Source: Escherichia coli (GTDB lineage Bacteria > Pseudomonadota > Gammaproteobacteria > Enterobacterales > Enterobacteriaceae). Taken from it: a DNA stretch of 64,000 bases. Below, one piece after another: positions 10,797 to 48,255 of this stretch (the first letter of the stretch is position 1; every line of letters begins with the position of its first letter). The notes beneath the pieces are model-generated. The model was not told the DNA's origin, ran no database searches, and worked only from the letters and a program-made list of their open reading frames with translations. The stretch lies in NCBI RefSeq assembly GCF_041248615.1, contig NZ_CP158426.1; one strand, given 5' to 3'. The position numbers and the translations under genes are program-made.

Positions 10797-13670
10797 ATGA
10801 CACAGACGTTAAGCCAGCTTGAAAACAGCGGCGCTTTTATTGAACGCCATATCGGACCGGACGCCGCGCAACAGCAAGAAATGCTGAATGCCGTTGGCGC
10901 ACAATCGTTAAACGCGCTGACCGGCCAGATTGTACCGAAAGATATTCAGCTTGCGACCCCGCCGCAGGTTGGCGCACCGGCGACCGAATACGCCGCACTG
11001 GCAGAACTCAAGGCTATTGCCAGTCGCAATAAACGCTTCACGTCTTACATCGGCATGGGTTACACCGCCGTGCAGCTACCGCCGGTTATCCTGCGTAACA
11101 TGCTGGAAAATCCGGGCTGGTATACCGCGTACACTCCGTATCAACCTGAAGTCTCCCAGGGCCGCCTTGAAGCATTGCTCAACTTCCAGCAGGTAACGCT
11201 GGATTTGACTGGACTGGATATGGCCTCTGCTTCTCTTCTGGACGAGGCCACCGCTGCCGCCGAAGCAATGGCGATGGCGAAACGCGTCAGCAAACTGAAA
11301 AATGCCAACCGCTTCTTCGTGGCTTCCGATGTGCATCCGCAAACTCTGGATGTGGTCCGTACTCGTGCCGAAACCTTTGGTTTTGAAGTGATTGTCGATG
11401 ACGCGCAAAAAGTGCTCGACCATCAGGACGTCTTCGGCGTGCTGTTACAGCAGGTAGGCACTACCGGTGAAATTCACGACTACACTGCGCTTATTAGCGA
11501 ACTGAAATCACGCAAAATTGTGGTCAGCGTTGCCGCCGATATTATGGCGCTGGTGCTGTTAACTGCGCCGGGTAAACAGGGCGCGGATATTGTTTTTGGT
11601 TCGGCGCAACGCTTCGGCGTGCCGATGGGCTACGGTGGCCCACACGCGGCATTCTTTGCGGCGAAAGATGAATACAAACGCTCAATGCCGGGCCGTATTA
11701 TCGGTGTATCGAAAGATGCAGCTGGCAATACCGCGCTGCGCATGGCGATGCAGACTCGCGAGCAACATATCCGCCGTGAGAAAGCGAACTCCAACATTTG
11801 TACTTCCCAGGTACTGCTGGCAAACATCGCCAGCCTGTATGCCGTTTATCACGGCCCGGTTGGCCTGAAACGTATCGCTAACCGCATTCACCGTCTGACC
11901 GATATCCTGGCGGCGGGCCTGCAACAAAAAGGTCTGAAACTGCGCCATGCGCACTATTTCGACACCTTGTGTGTGGAAGTGGCCGACAAAGCGGGCGTAC
12001 TGACGCGTGCCGAAGCGGCTGAAATCAACCTGCGTAGCGATATTCTGAACGCGGTTGGGATCACCCTTGATGAAACAACCACGCGTGAAAACGTAATGCA
12101 GCTTTTCAACGTGCTGCTGGGCGATAACCACGGCCTGGACATCGACACGCTGGACAAAGACGTGGCTCACGACAGCCGCTCTATCCAGCCTGCGATGCTG
12201 CGCGACGACGAAATCCTCACCCATCCGGTGTTTAATCGCTACCACAGCGAAACCGAAATGATGCGCTATATGCACTCGCTGGAGCGTAAAGATCTGGCGC
12301 TGAATCAGGCGATGATCCCGCTGGGTTCCTGCACCATGAAACTGAACGCCGCCGCCGAGATGATCCCAATCACCTGGCCGGAATTTGCCGAACTGCACCC
12401 GTTTTGTCCGCCGGAACAGGCTGAAGGTTATCAGCAGATGATTGCGCAGCTGGCTGACTGGCTGGTGAAACTGACCGGTTACGACGCCGTTTGTATGCAG
12501 CCGAACTCCGGCGCACAGGGCGAATACGCGGGCCTGCTGGCGATTCGTCATTATCATGAAAGCCGCAATGAAGGGCATCGCGATATCTGCCTGATCCCGG
12601 CTTCTGCGCACGGAACTAACCCCGCTTCTGCACATATGGCAGGAATGCAGGTGGTGGTTGTGGCGTGTGATAAAAACGGCAACATCGATCTGACTGATCT
12701 GCGCGCGAAAGCGGAACAGGCGGGCGATAACCTCTCCTGTATCATGGTGACTTATCCTTCTACCCACGGCGTGTATGAAGAAACGATCCGTGAAGTGTGT
12801 GAAGTCGTGCATCAGTTCGGCGGTCAGGTTTACCTTGATGGCGCGAACATGAACGCCCAGGTTGGCATCACCTCGCCGGGCTTTATTGGCGCGGACGTTT
12901 CGCACCTCAACCTGCATAAAACTTTCTGCATTCCGCACGGCGGTGGTGGTCCGGGTATGGGACCGATCGGTGTGAAAGCGCATCTGGCACCGTTTGTACC
13001 GGGTCATAGCGTGGTGCAAATCGAAGGCATGTTAACCCGTCAGGGCGCAGTTTCTGCGGCACCGTTCGGTAGCGCCTCTATCCTGCCAATCAGCTGGATG
13101 TACATCCGCATGATGGGCGCAGAAGGGCTGAAAAAAGCAAGCCAGGTGGCAATCCTCAACGCCAACTATATTGCCAGCCGCCTGCAGGATGCCTTCCCGG
13201 TGCTGTATACCGGTCGCGACGGTCGCGTGGCGCACGAATGTATTCTCGATATTCGCCCGCTGAAAGAAGAAACCGGCATCAGCGAGCTGGATATTGCCAA
13301 GCGCCTGATCGACTACGGTTTCCACGCGCCAACGATGTCGTTCCCGGTGGCGGGTACGCTGATGGTTGAACCGACTGAATCTGAAAGCAAAGTGGAACTG
13401 GATCGCTTTATCGACGCGATGCTGGCTATCCGCGCAGAAATCGACCAGGTTAAAGCCGGTGTCTGGCCGCTGGAAGATAACCCGCTGGTGAACGCGCCGC
13501 ACATTCAGAACGAACTGGTCGCCGAGTGGGCGCATCCGTACAGCCGTGAAGTTGCAGTATTCCCGGCAGGTGTGGCAGACAAATACTGGCCGACGGTGAA
13601 ACGTCTGGATGATGTTTACGGTGACCGTAACCTGTTCTGCTCCTGCGTACCGATTAGCGAATACCAGTAA
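10797..13670 (+). CDS. gcvP: glycine dehydrogenase (decarboxylating), P protein
   Basis: 957-aa [25 protein letters not shown]... Confidence 0.97.
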
Positions 13671-13692: not shown

Positions 13693-13715
13693 AAAGGCGC
13701 TTCGGCGCCTTTTTA
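13693..13715 (+). terminator. rho-independent terminator after gcvP
   Basis: hairpin aggcgc-ttcg-gcgcct followed by tttt. Confidence 0.8.
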
Positions 13716-13740
13716 GTCAGATGACAAAGTACAAAAGCGC

Positions 13741-13858
13741 TCAGACAGTCCCCTCACCCCTTTGGGGAGAGGGTTAGGGTGAGGGGAACAGGCCGGCACT
13801 GGCGCGAATATTTACCCTCACCCCGGCCCTCTCCCTGAAAGGGCGAGGGGAAAAGCGT
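13741..13858. repeat. GC-rich imperfect palindromic intergenic repeat (Box C-like), two units
   Basis: cccctcaccc...gggtgagggg and ccctcacccc...gggcgagggg inverted motifs; a related gggtgagg...cctcaccc hairpin also lies between gcvH and gcvP (10710-10740). Confidence 0.5.
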
Positions 13859-13935
13859 GCCAACATTGAAGATTGAGCCAGTTTGTTAGCAATCTCAAAG
13901 ATACGTCAACGAATTAATTTTTCTCGGAAAAACAA

Positions 13936-45476: not shown

Positions 45477-47102
45477 ATGAATATTTTCACAGAGGCTGCA
45501 AAACTCGAAGAGCAAAATTGTCCGTTTGCTATGGCGCAAATTGTTGATAGCCGAGGCTCGACTCCCCGCCATTCTGCACAAATGTTAGTGCGCGCCGATG
45601 GTTCTATCGTCGGTACAATTGGTGGCGGAATGGTTGAGCGGAAGGTGATTGAAGAGTCGCTTCAGGCATTGCAGGAACGTAAGCCGCGATTATTCCATGG
45701 ACGTATGGCTCGTAACGGTGCGGATGCTGTCGGGTCAGATTGTGGAGGTGCAATGTCAGTATTTATCAGCGTCCATGGTATGCGTCCACGTCTGGTGTTG
45801 ATTGGCGCGGGGCATGTCAACCGGGCGATAGCCCAGAGTGCGGCGCTATTAGGATTTGATATTGCCGTTGCTGATATTTATCGCGAAAGCCTCAATCCTG
45901 AACTATTCCCACCATCAACCACGCTTCTCCATGCTGAGTCGTTTGGTGCGGCAGTGGAAGCACTGGATATTCGCCCTGATAATTTTGTCCTGATTGCCAC
46001 GAATAATCAGGATCGTGAAGCCCTCGACAAACTCATTGAACAGCCCATTGCATGGTTGGGGTTGCTGGCAAGTCGTCGCAAGGTTCAGCTTTTCCTGCGT
46101 CAATTGCGTGAGAAAGGCGTGGCTGAAGAACATATTGCCCGTTTACATGCGCCCGTTGGTTACAACATAGGTGCGGAAACGCCGCAGGAGATCGCCATCA
46201 GCGTGCTGGCAGAAATATTACAGGTGAAAAATAACGCGCCGGGTGGGCTGATGATGAAACCTTCTCATCCTTCCGGACACCAGCTGGTGGTGATTCGCGG
46301 TGCGGGAGATATCGCCAGTGGTGTGGCGCTACGTCTGTATCATGCGGGTTTTAAAGTGATCATGCTGGAAGTGGAAAAACCGACAGTGATTCGTTGTACC
46401 GTGGCGTTTGCCCAGGCCGTGTTCGATGGCGAAATGACGGTCGAAGGCGTCACTGCTCGCCTGGCAACCAGCTCTGCGGAAGCGATGAAACTTACCGAAC
46501 GCGGATTCATTCCTGTGATGGTAGATCCCGCCTGTTCATTGCTTGATGAACTGAAACCGCTTTGCGTGGTGGACGCTATTCTGGCGAAACAGAATTTGGG
46601 AACGCGGGCAGATATGGCACCAGTAACAATCGCGCTTGGGCCGGGCTTTACTGCTGGGAAGGATTGTCATGCGGTAATTGAAACAAATCGCGGGCACTGG
46701 CTCGGTCAGGTGATTTACTCTGGTTGTGCGCAGGAGAATACCGGTGTTCCTGGCAATATTATGGGGCATACCACCCGACGGGTGATCCGTGCTCCTGCTG
46801 CAGGCATTATGCGATCCAACGTGAAATTAGGCGATCTGGTGAAAGAGGGCGATGTGATTGCCTGGATTGGTGAGCATGAAATTAAAGCACCGTTGACGGG
46901 GATGGTGCGTGGCTTGTTGAACGACGGCCTGGCAGTGGTTGGTGGTTTTAAAATTGGTGATATCGATCCTCGTGGTGAAACCGCTGATTTCACCAGCGTT
47001 TCTGATAAAGCCCGGGCGATTGGCGGCGGCGTACTTGAGGCGTTAATGATGTTGATGCATCAGGGCGTGAAAGCGACAAAAGAAGTGCTGGAAGTGGCTT
47101 AA
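45477..47102 (+). CDS. yqeB: XdhC/CoxI-family accessory protein YqeB (selenium-dependent molybdenum hydroxylase system)
   Basis: 541-aa ORF MNIFTEAAKLEEQNCPFAMAQIVDSRGSTPRHSA... Confidence 0.9.
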   Translation: MNIFTEAAKLEEQNCPFAMAQIVDSRGSTPRHSAQMLVRADGSIVGTIGGGMVERKVIEESLQALQERKPRLFHGRMARNGADAVGSDCGGAMSVFISVHGMRPRLVLIGAGHVNRAIAQSAALLGFDIAVADIYRESLNPELFPPSTTLLHAESFGAAVEALDIRPDNFVLIATNNQDREALDKLIEQPIAWLGLLASRRKVQLFLRQLREKGVAEEHIARLHAPVGYNIGAETPQEIAISVLAEILQVKNNAPGGLMMKPSHPSGHQLVVIRGAGDIASGVALRLYHAGFKVIMLEVEKPTVIRCTVAFAQAVFDGEMTVEGVTARLATSSAEAMKLTERGFIPVMVDPACSLLDELKPLCVVDAILAKQNLGTRADMAPVTIALGPGFTAGKDCHAVIETNRGHWLGQVIYSGCAQENTGVPGNIMGHTTRRVIRAPAAGIMRSNVKLGDLVKEGDVIAWIGEHEIKAPLTGMVRGLLNDGLAVVGGFKIGDIDPRGETADFTSVSDKARAIGGGVLEALMMLMHQGVKATKEVLEVA

Positions 47103-47109
47103 ATGAAAA

Positions 47110-47317
47110 TGGCCGGATGGTATTACCCACCCGGCCTGAGACTGATGACAAACGCCAAATTGCCTGATGCGCTACGCTTATCAGGCCTACAAGTGCATTG
47201 CAATCTATTGAATTTGCGATGTTTTGTAGGACGGATAAGGCGCTCGCGCCGCATCCGGCATCAACAAAGCGCACTTACTTGACAATCTTTGGCCGGATGG
47301 TATTACCCACCCGGCCT
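47110..47317. repeat. BIME-like unit: two inverted REP elements (47161-47190, 47226-47260) flanked by a 28-bp perfect direct repeat
   Basis: tggccggatggtattacccacccggcct at 47110-47137 and again at 47290-47317; REP consensus between (gcctgatgcgctacgcttatcaggcctac / gtaggacggataaggcgctcgcgccgcatccggca). Confidence 0.75.
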
Positions 47318-47322
47318 TTAAA

Positions 47323-48255
47323 TTACTGACAAATCACCGTTCCTGTTTTGCCTTCAATCCCTTCTTTCGCTTTGCTCAATACGGTAATCAGTGCTTCACG
47401 ACCTGCGCGAGAGCGAGCAAACGAGGCGGCAGCTTCCACTTTAGGCAGCATAGAACCTTTCGCAAAATGACCTTCTTCGATAAAGCGTTCAGCATCACTT
47501 AATGACAGGCGATCGAGCCACTGTTCATTCTCTTTACCGAAGTTAATGGCCACTTTTTCTACCGCAGTCAGAATGATCAGCATATCGGCATCAATCATTT
47601 CTGCTAAACGGGCGCTGGCCCAGTCTTTATCGATAACCGCGCTGGCACCACGCAGATGGTTACCTTCACGAATAACAGGGATACCACCACCGCCAACGGT
47701 GATCACCACCTGACCTGCATCTACCAGAGCTTTAACCGTTTCTTTTTCAATGATATCAACCGGTTTTGGCGAGGCAACAACACGGCGATAGCCGCGACCA
47801 GCATCTTCTTTCAGAGTGTAACCCTGTTTTGTCAGTTGCTCTGCTTCTTGCTCGGTAAAGAACGAACCGATCGGCTTGGTCGGGTTGAGGAATGCCGGAT
47901 CGTTAGCGTCGACTTCGACCTGAGTAACCAGCGTTGCTACAGGTTTATTAATGCCCCGAGAAAGCAGTTCTTCTCTTAAAGCGTTTTGTAGATCGTAACC
48001 AATATAACCCTGGCTTAATGCAACACAGACAGACATCGGCAGCATTGGCGAGTGCGCTTCAGTTTTTGCGGCAGCTTCAAAGGCCTGGTTAATCATGCCC
48101 ACCTGCGGCCCGTTACCATGAGTGACGATAACTTCATGTCCCTGGGCAATTAAATCAACAATTGCCTGAGAAGTAATTTTTACCGCTTTCATTTGCCCGG
48201 CCAGGTCATCGCCCAGCGCATTCCCGCCCAGGGCGAGAACAATTTTCTTACTCAT
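47323..48255 (-). CDS. yqeA: carbamate kinase-like protein
   Basis: 310-aa ORF MSKKIVLALGGNALGDDLAGQMKAV... Confidence 0.93.
   Translation of the reverse strand: MSKKIVLALGGNALGDDLAGQMKAVKITSQAIVDLIAQGHEVIVTHGNGPQVGMINQAFEAAAKTEAHSPMLPMSVCVALSQGYIGYDLQNALREELLSRGINKPVATLVTQVEVDANDPAFLNPTKPIGSFFTEQEAEQLTKQGYTLKEDAGRGYRRVVASPKPVDIIEKETVKALVDAGQVVITVGGGGIPVIREGNHLRGASAVIDKDWASARLAEMIDADMLIILTAVEKVAINFGKENEQWLDRLSLSDAERFIEEGHFAKGSMLPKVEAAASFARSRAGREALITVLSKAKEGIEGKTGTVICQ

Follow-up and report, generated by a model that had tools for sequence, protein, structure and literature searches.

The exact 28-bp direct repeat between the convergent genes yqeB and yqeA of Escherichia coli is, very probably, the target-site duplication of a bidirectional terminator hairpin, which resulted from the insertion of a BIME-1 unit. 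The window (the whole stretch of E. coli DNA that was analysed, with a length of 64 kb) carries the occupied form of this locus. We observed that the element is a discrete unit with conserved inverted termini, that it is inserted at or directly against hairpins, that the hairpin is duplicated at three loci with empty sites, and that the unit is precisely lost.

The repeat, the hairpin and the inserted unit

The 28-bp sequence TGGCCGGATGGTATTACCCACCCGGCCT occurs in two perfect copies (0 mismatches) on the plus strand of the window, with a start-to-start spacing of 180 bp (Table 1). No third match was found in the 64-kb window when up to three mismatches were allowed, and the chance expectation from 100 shuffles was 0.00 matches. 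The repeat and the insert occupy the intergenic gap of yqeB and yqeA, where the stop codon of yqeB is located 7 nt ahead of the first copy and the stop codon of yqeA 5 nt past the second. The initial annotation had described an exact repeat with two copies 180 bp apart, next to the two stop codons and enclosing two inverted REPs, and this description is borne out: the repeat has no third copy in the window and the enclosed REPs are of the Y type and the Z1 type. No repeat feature is annotated at this site in the K-12 record NC_000913.3. The 28-mer itself resembles a short Z-type REP (GCCGGATG...CATCCGGC).

Table 1. Features of the yqeB-yqeA intergenic region and the adjoining genes, in window coordinates.
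Feature	Position	Strand	Remark
yqeB	45477..47102	+	stop codon 47100-47102
yqeB stop codon and A-rich tract	47100..47109	-	minus-strand reading AUUUUCAUUU is the predicted U-tract of the yqeA terminator (terminator scan)
28-mer copy 1	47110..47137	+	left duplicated terminator hairpin; retains the A-tract side
BIME-1 unit	47138..47289	+	151-152 bp; last base ambiguous (element or duplication); absent from empty-site alleles
Left terminus GAGACTGATGACAAACGC	47138..47155	+	outer BIME-1 motif; common to Yersinia YPAL/RU-2 and boxC-type elements
Y-type REP GCCTGATGCGCTACGCTTATCAGGCCTAC	47162..47190	+	invariant across aligned paralogs
L motif with IHF-like core CAATCTATTGAAT at 47201-47213	47191..47225	+	core has one mismatch to the consensus YAANNNNTTGATW
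Z1-type REP GTAGGACGGATAAGGCGCTCGCGCCGCATCCGGC, inverted	47226..47259	+	base-paired to the Y REP when the whole unit is folded
Right terminus GCGCACTTACTTGACAATCT	47269..47288	+	slightly degenerate copy of the family consensus GCGCACTTTGTCAACAATCT
28-mer copy 2	47290..47317	+	right duplicated hairpin; retains the T-tract side (TTTAAATT)
T-rich tail TTAAATTA	47318..47325	+	overlaps the yqeA stop codon (minus strand)
yqeA (arcC)	47323..48255	-	stop codon 47323-47325

The 28-mer is predicted from its sequence to be an intrinsic terminator, in which a G+C-rich stem-loop precedes a U-tract. The minus strand of copy 1 folds into a perfect 10-bp stem (RNA, -22.6 kcal/mol) that is followed by AUUUUCAUUU, and the terminator scan places the stem at 47136..47111 with the tail ATTTTCATTT. 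The fold of copy 1 has -16.7 kcal/mol on the plus strand and -22.6 kcal/mol on the minus strand as RNA, and -8.8 and -10.7 kcal/mol, respectively, as DNA. The plus-strand side of the terminator is weaker (-16.7 kcal/mol, with the tail UUUAAAUU after copy 2). Each copy had been annotated as a hairpin that lacks a T-tract. The hairpin is confirmed; the absence of the tract is not, as copy 1 continues into ATTTTCATTT on the minus strand and copy 2 into TTTAAATT on the plus strand. The tract that is absent from each copy is only the one on the side facing the insert. In the empty allele, the lone hairpin is flanked by an A-tract and, on its opposite side, by a T-tract, as would be predicted for a bidirectional terminator that serves two convergent genes.

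When the unit alone was used as query, full-length paralogs (positions 1-151 or 2-152) with 84-89% identity were found at other sites of every E. coli genome. As these paralogs span the unit from end to end, the ends of the unit coincide with the inner edges of the 28-mers. The aligned paralogs, which are located at uspB-pitA, mog-satP, entD-fepA, aspC-gloC, yajD-tsx and narP-ccmH, share one common architecture that consists, in this order, of the left terminus GAGACTGATGACAAACGC, the Y REP, the IHF-like linker, the inverted Z1 REP and the right terminus GCGCACTTTGTCAACAATCT. The left and the right terminus form an imperfect inverted repeat (AGAYTGWTGACAAA), the REPs carry the canonical GTAG/CTAC tags, and the whole unit folds into one long imperfect hairpin. 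The linker of 35 nt (47191-47225) is conserved and includes a predicted IHF site, with one mismatch to the IHF core consensus YAANNNNTTGATW. The unit is single, non-tandem and intergenic (151-152 bp) and it is polymorphic among isolates. According to the literature, a BIME-1 consists of a Y REP and an inverted Z1 REP that are separated by a long, IHF-binding linker (PMC3333891); it has a length of ~140 bp and is present in some isolates and absent from others (PMC1187871). The REP pair that had been called BIME-like can be specified further, namely as a complete BIME-1 unit with YPAL-type termini.

Some parts of the unit have been described under other names. In Rfam, there is a near-threshold match of ES036/CssrF to the L motif (47183-47225, minus strand, 36.3 bits compared to a gathering score of 37.6) and a weak match of naRNA4/CssrE to the Z1 REP (47229-47265, plus strand). 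RNAs from such units have thus already been catalogued as small RNAs. As an account of the 28-mer, these families were rejected because they describe REP-derived RNAs only. The 103-nt element 'RU-3' of Delihas (PMC2759123, Table 1b; published in 2007 as a novel repeat of E. coli) represents the BIME-1 core. Compared with window positions 47162-47259, it contains the Z1 REP, the L motif and the Y REP without the outer termini.

Occupied and empty alleles at yqeB-yqeA

The locus was found in 5,167 of 5,426 complete E. coli genomes, about 1,648 of which carry the occupied, full form. In most other locus-bearing genomes, the flanks are exactly 180 bp closer to each other and the alignment contains one 28-mer and nothing else (...TAAATGAAAATGGCCGGATGGTATTACCCACCCGGCCTTTAAATTA...), so that the single-copy state accounts for about two thirds of the E. 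coli genomes with the locus. Two copies of the 28-mer with nothing between them were not seen in any allele examined. The proposal that the duplication arose together with the REP/BIME insertion came with a suggested check, the comparison with strains that lack the REP pair. These strains carry exactly one 28-mer and are exactly 180 bp shorter, and the outgroups have a single hairpin, both of which support the proposal. There is neither need nor support for the other suggestion, namely two sites bound by a protein, as the 28-mer is locus-specific, variable among strains and present as a single copy in most of them.

Related genomes show which state is ancestral. Escherichia sp. E1V33 carries the same hairpin once, with a perfect stem, and Citrobacter sp. 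MGH106 carries a related single hairpin. In Atlantibacter, Trabulsiella and Yokenella, one unrelated hairpin each, flanked by an A-tract and a T-tract, is found at the same position. As the outgroups have a single hairpin, we conclude that one hairpin is ancestral and that the two-copy state is derived. Occupied alleles share an identical insert despite a flank divergence of up to about 2%; only NCTC10444 departs from this, by two substitutions. This suggests a single insertion that was either shared by descent or spread by recombination.

The insertion can also be lost precisely. Strain WEM25 carries the empty allele although it is nearly isogenic to the window, with 5 substitutions over 12.6 kb. 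The missing 180 bp are the sole indel in this region, and the overlap of the two BLAST segments is the 28-mer itself (28 nt). Since backgrounds that diverge far more also carry occupied alleles, the simplest history of WEM25 is that the unit was recently lost by a precise deletion between the repeats. Such a loss fits the 'excisions of a whole BIME-1' that Bachellier et al. reportedly mentioned in an abstract of 1997.

Several further alleles document the later history of the site. E. whittamii carries an orthologous, truncated BIME-1 (L020:2425-2600, minus strand), in which the left terminus, the Y REP and the L motif are kept. There, the L motif runs directly into GTAG and a hairpin with a different loop, and neither the Z1 REP nor the right terminus is present. 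An orthologous unit in E. whittamii implies that the insertion is older than E. coli or was exchanged between species. In E69, the same yqeB-yqeA target hairpin contains a 110-bp boxC-type element with the same termini (L022:2465-2574, minus strand), flanked by two hairpin copies that differ in the loop and at a few stem positions. Thus, the loop of the right-hand hairpin differs from that of the left-hand hairpin in E. whittamii and E69, whereas the two K-12 copies are identical. Gene conversion, and not recency, could therefore account in part for the perfect match of the K-12 copies. The CCCACCC of the 28-mer varies between C6, C7 and C8 in occupied strains (L004, L014-L018; window 47129-47135 and 47309-47315), and strain 2014C-3599 has the same A-to-C change in both copies, which hints at gene conversion between them. 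Possible sources of these differences and identities between copies are older duplications that have diverged, gene conversion or repeated hits on the same target. In the O157:H7 strain 493/89 (L019), an IS30-family transposase gene is located directly upstream of a 150-bp partial yqeB without the N-terminus; it appears that yqeB was truncated by an IS30 insertion in this lineage, with the empty-site hairpin downstream. The Citrobacter amalonaticus group and Citrobacter sp. R56 (L024-L027) have REP-like palindromes of their own, with CTAC/GTAG tags, at the same intergenic position.

BIME-1 at other loci and the termini it shares

Two other loci are polymorphic for BIME-1. At uspB-pitA, we counted 1,940 occupied genomes, and the majority of the others is shorter by 173 bp. 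A single hairpin, AAAAAAAGCGGGCCAGTAAACTGACCCGCTCGTTTT, is present in the empty allele; in the occupied allele, it is found on either side of the unit, and four loop bases are absent from its right copy. At mog-satP, only 467 genomes are occupied. Here, K-12 is empty with one hairpin, and the occupied alleles contain two diverged copies. The duplication has a length of 28 bp at yqeB-yqeA, 26-28 bp at uspB-pitA and about 20 bp at mog-satP, and at each of these loci it spans the hairpin.

To survey further insertions, we combined a left-terminus pattern scan of metagenome contigs with the genome hits, which resulted in 13 distinct loci. In all nine complete copies, the unit has a length of 150-151 bp. 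Five of these nine are located between duplicates of the same locus-specific hairpin. For those five, the flanks of the same locus score 13-28 when compared to each other, whereas flanks of different loci have a mean score of 5.7 and a maximum of 13 (n=72 control pairs). All five lie between convergent genes, and the A-tract stays with the left copy and the T-tract with the right copy. Of the remaining complete copies, three adjoin a hairpin on one side only and one is found without a hairpin. At 9 of 13 loci, the end of a stable hairpin lies no more than 3 nt from the left terminus, compared to 5 of 65 shifted controls. The four copies without hairpin duplication have terminal matches of 3-4 bp at offsets of 2-4 nt, which are rare in the cross-locus controls and could possibly be short target duplications. 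As four of nine copies lack it, the long duplication is not obligatory. The polarity of insertion at these other loci, whose sequences stem from E. coli genomes and from metagenome contigs of unknown source, would follow by analogy. Downstream of glpD, a BIME-1 (L104) is located exactly between a hairpin and a T-tract, in the order hairpin, unit, AACCTACTTTTT. This locus was rejected for an empty-allele comparison because the downstream region is unrelated, and contains another gene, in strains that lack the element.

The termini of the unit are also found outside of BIME-1. The element RU-2 of Y. pestis (PMC2759123) begins with ttCAGACTGCTGACAAAC and ends with GCACTTTGTCAATAACCTca, which are the termini of the E. 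coli unit. In a manual count against Y. pestis YPAL/RU-2, 14 of 16 positions match on the left (CAGACTGCTGACAAAC compared to GAGACTGATGACAAAC) and 16 of 18 on the right (GCACTTTGTCAATAACCT compared to GCACTTTGTCAACAATCT). Compared with the ends of known insertion sequences, there is a 7-nt match to IS10 and a loose match to IS903, both of which are too weak to be informative. In E. coli, the same termini bracket boxC-type repeats downstream of gcvP, at argE, at alx and at yqeB-yqeA in E69. Within the window, a boxC pair past gcvP (13715-13895; gcvP stop at 13670) is bracketed by AGTCAGATGACAAAG ... TTTGTTAGCAATCT. This pair starts just beyond the T-tract of the gcvP terminator hairpin, and no second copy of the hairpin was seen on its right. 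Chen (2010) found only three YPAL matches in E. coli. In the accessible literature, we found neither a link between the YPAL termini and BIME-1 nor a named transposase for YPAL.

BIME-1, the boxC-type repeats of E. coli and Yersinia YPAL might be cargo variants of one superfamily of miniature elements that is defined by its termini (SAGACTGMTGACAAA ... TTTGTCARYAAYCT) and mobilized by one enzyme that targets hairpins in their extruded form, for the most part those of intrinsic terminators, and duplicates the whole hairpin. We propose this tentatively, as a possibility that we do not favour over its opposite. Presence/absence polymorphism of BIME-1 and long, structure-spanning duplications by YPAL-type elements are already known. 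The link between the termini of BIME-1, boxC-type repeats and YPAL and the rule that a whole terminator hairpin is duplicated may be unreported.

Mechanism, alternatives and known systems

In the scenario that we propose, yqeB and yqeA would have shared one bidirectional terminator in the ancestor, which consisted of an A-tract, a 26-nt imperfect palindrome and a T-tract. A non-autonomous BIME-1 of 152 bp would then have been inserted at this hairpin, such that the whole hairpin ended up on both sides. One strand would probably be cut at one base of the hairpin or cruciform and the other strand at the opposite base, perhaps in the extruded state, with a stagger that equals the length of the palindrome. 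The element would be joined to the cut ends, and filling of the hairpin-length single-stranded gaps would yield two full hairpin copies. This would be the ordinary geometry of a target duplication, but with a length that is set by the structure of the target and not by a fixed ruler. A structure-set stagger would explain why 20-28 bp are found at hairpins and possibly 3-4 bp at sites without a hairpin. Resolution of a cruciform to hairpin-capped ends and cutting of the loop were rejected by reasoning, as they yield half a palindrome per end or a central break; only opposite-strand cuts at both hairpin bases with subsequent fill-in should give two full copies. We also rejected the idea that the stagger stems from 3' ends of transcripts, as the A-tract and T-tract, at which termination occurs, lie outside of the duplication.

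Since the termini are those of the Yersinia YPAL family, a trans-acting transposase that recognizes them would be the most likely agent. We speculate that the putative IHF site in the centre might bend the unit and thereby pair the termini, as in other transposition complexes. After the insertion, each gene would first meet a hairpin without a U-tract and would reach the complete terminator 180 nt further. With the complete terminators displaced in this way, the REP pair should join both 3' UTRs. The two 28-mers would supply the homology for precise loss.

We considered three other explanations for the duplicated hairpin. The REP pair could have been moved as single-stranded DNA by RAYT/TnpA_REP, and the duplication of the hairpin would then be a separate event or a by-product of repair. 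The canonical Y and Z1 REPs with GTAG/CTAC tags in the insert fit this explanation, as does the cleavage by TnpA_REP at C^T, which can occur at a distance from the BIME (PMC3333891); several left junctions lie between the C and the T of CT(G)AGACTG. The mechanism by which REPs and BIMEs are disseminated has moreover been described as unresolved (PMC8266576). However, Y1 transposition of the IS200/IS605 type leaves no flanking direct repeats (PMC3333891; PMC2817692), whereas three polymorphic loci show a target duplication. In addition, the target hairpins are ordinary terminators without GTAG tags. Because the RAYT family leaves no duplication, because the boundaries of the unit are conserved outer termini 20-30 nt outside the REPs, and because the same termini carry cargo other than REPs (boxC-type elements and Yersinia YPAL), RAYT is the weaker candidate and we regard this explanation as improbable.

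No transposase at all would be needed if a replication fork stalled at the terminator hairpin, continued on a BIME-1 elsewhere as template and resumed at a point upstream of the hairpin, which would thereby be copied twice. The targets are indeed stable hairpins, the length of the duplication varies with that of the hairpin (20-28 bp) instead of being a fixed stagger, and loss by slippage between the repeats evidently happens. Yet the ends of the element are constant within 1-2 nt at all loci and no donor flanks are included, unlike in microhomology-guided switching, and the conservation of the inverted termini across genera and cargos points to recognition by a protein. We thus consider this route as slightly more improbable again. 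The least probable explanation, which we think is hardly credible, reverses the polarity: the two-copy state would be ancestral, or kept as a functional pair of binding sites or selected terminators, and the single-copy alleles would be deletions. Precise deletion does occur, as in WEM25, and occupied alleles on several divergent backgrounds together with the degenerate copy in E. whittamii suggest that the insertion is not very young. This explanation is at odds with the single related hairpins in E1V33 and MGH106, the single unrelated terminator in more distant genera and the one copy in about two thirds of the locus-bearing E. coli genomes. Furthermore, the 28-mer is found nowhere else in the window and its poly-C run varies freely among strains.

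How REPs and BIMEs spread has been an open question for decades. The yqeB-yqeA locus offers a clean natural experiment, as it combines an ancestral single hairpin, a perfect 28-bp duplication and a precise loss in a near-isogenic strain. Here, BIME-1 behaves as a miniature transposon that is defined by its termini and targets terminator hairpins. Insertion by such an element predicts a trans-acting enzyme that recognizes the termini and a duplication length that equals the hairpin length. It also predicts that the yqeB and yqeA transcripts of K-12 extend by 180 nt and include the REP pair, which they should not do in about two thirds of the locus-bearing genomes. If the superfamily exists, many REP pairs of E. 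coli would have spread as passengers and not via the REP-associated tyrosine transposase, and bidirectional terminators of convergent gene pairs would systematically be rebuilt into two one-sided terminators that enclose a REP pair.

Lastly, we compare the unit to known systems. It resembles the BIME-1 (RIP/RIB) of the E. coli literature, which is a single-copy element at its locus with about 140-150 bp and an intergenic position at gene 3' ends (PMC3333891; PMC1187871). There, BIME-1 is treated as a REP cluster and REPs are associated with a type of transposase that does not duplicate its target, whereas here it has defined inverted termini and a target duplication. With REPIN/RAYT (IS200/IS605 superfamily), it shares the inverted REP doublet as the repeated unit and the long-hairpin fold. 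These elements move by a single-stranded DNA mechanism without terminal inverted repeats or target duplication; here both are present, and the boundaries lie outside the REPs. The classical MITEs (ERIC/IRU, Correia/NEMIS, RUP) are similarly short and non-coding, with terminal inverted repeats and a foldable body. Filled and empty sites, co-transcription with upstream genes and, in some (Correia), an IHF site are further similarities. Their duplication is a fixed TA, in contrast to the long, variable and hairpin-coincident duplication here, and Delihas (2011) stated that REPs 'do not display MITE signatures' (PMC3184786).

In a purely mechanistic respect, the proposed insertion is analogous to the integration of CRISPR spacers. 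The two have no sequence or protein relationship: the insert here has 152 bp and its own termini, the target differs per locus, and nothing implicates Cas1-Cas2. In CRISPR integration, a partly palindromic repeat of roughly 28 bp is duplicated by strand attack at its opposite borders and subsequent gap filling.

Another close system is YPAL/RU-2, many targets of which reportedly overlap rho-independent terminator-like sequences downstream of genes (abstract by De Gregorio et al. from 2006). Apart from the termini, the likeness extends to a length of about 150-170 bp that is not AT-rich, filled and empty sites between strains, and a target duplication whose length varies and whose targets have dyad symmetry. 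For YPAL/RU-2, the Delihas reviews give about 168 bp, no AT-richness and target-site duplications that 'vary in size from 3 to 26 bp'; the targets either include a dyad symmetry or lie next to one (PMC2229807). The 28-bp duplication at yqeB-yqeA is slightly above this range. Furthermore, YPAL/RU-2 has Yersinia as host, compared to Escherichia here, and a core of its own, whereas the unit here contains two REPs and a linker with putative IHF binding; the interiors do not align. As the termini and the behaviour are shared and the core is not, we classify the unit as a YPAL-type element and not as a copy of YPAL.
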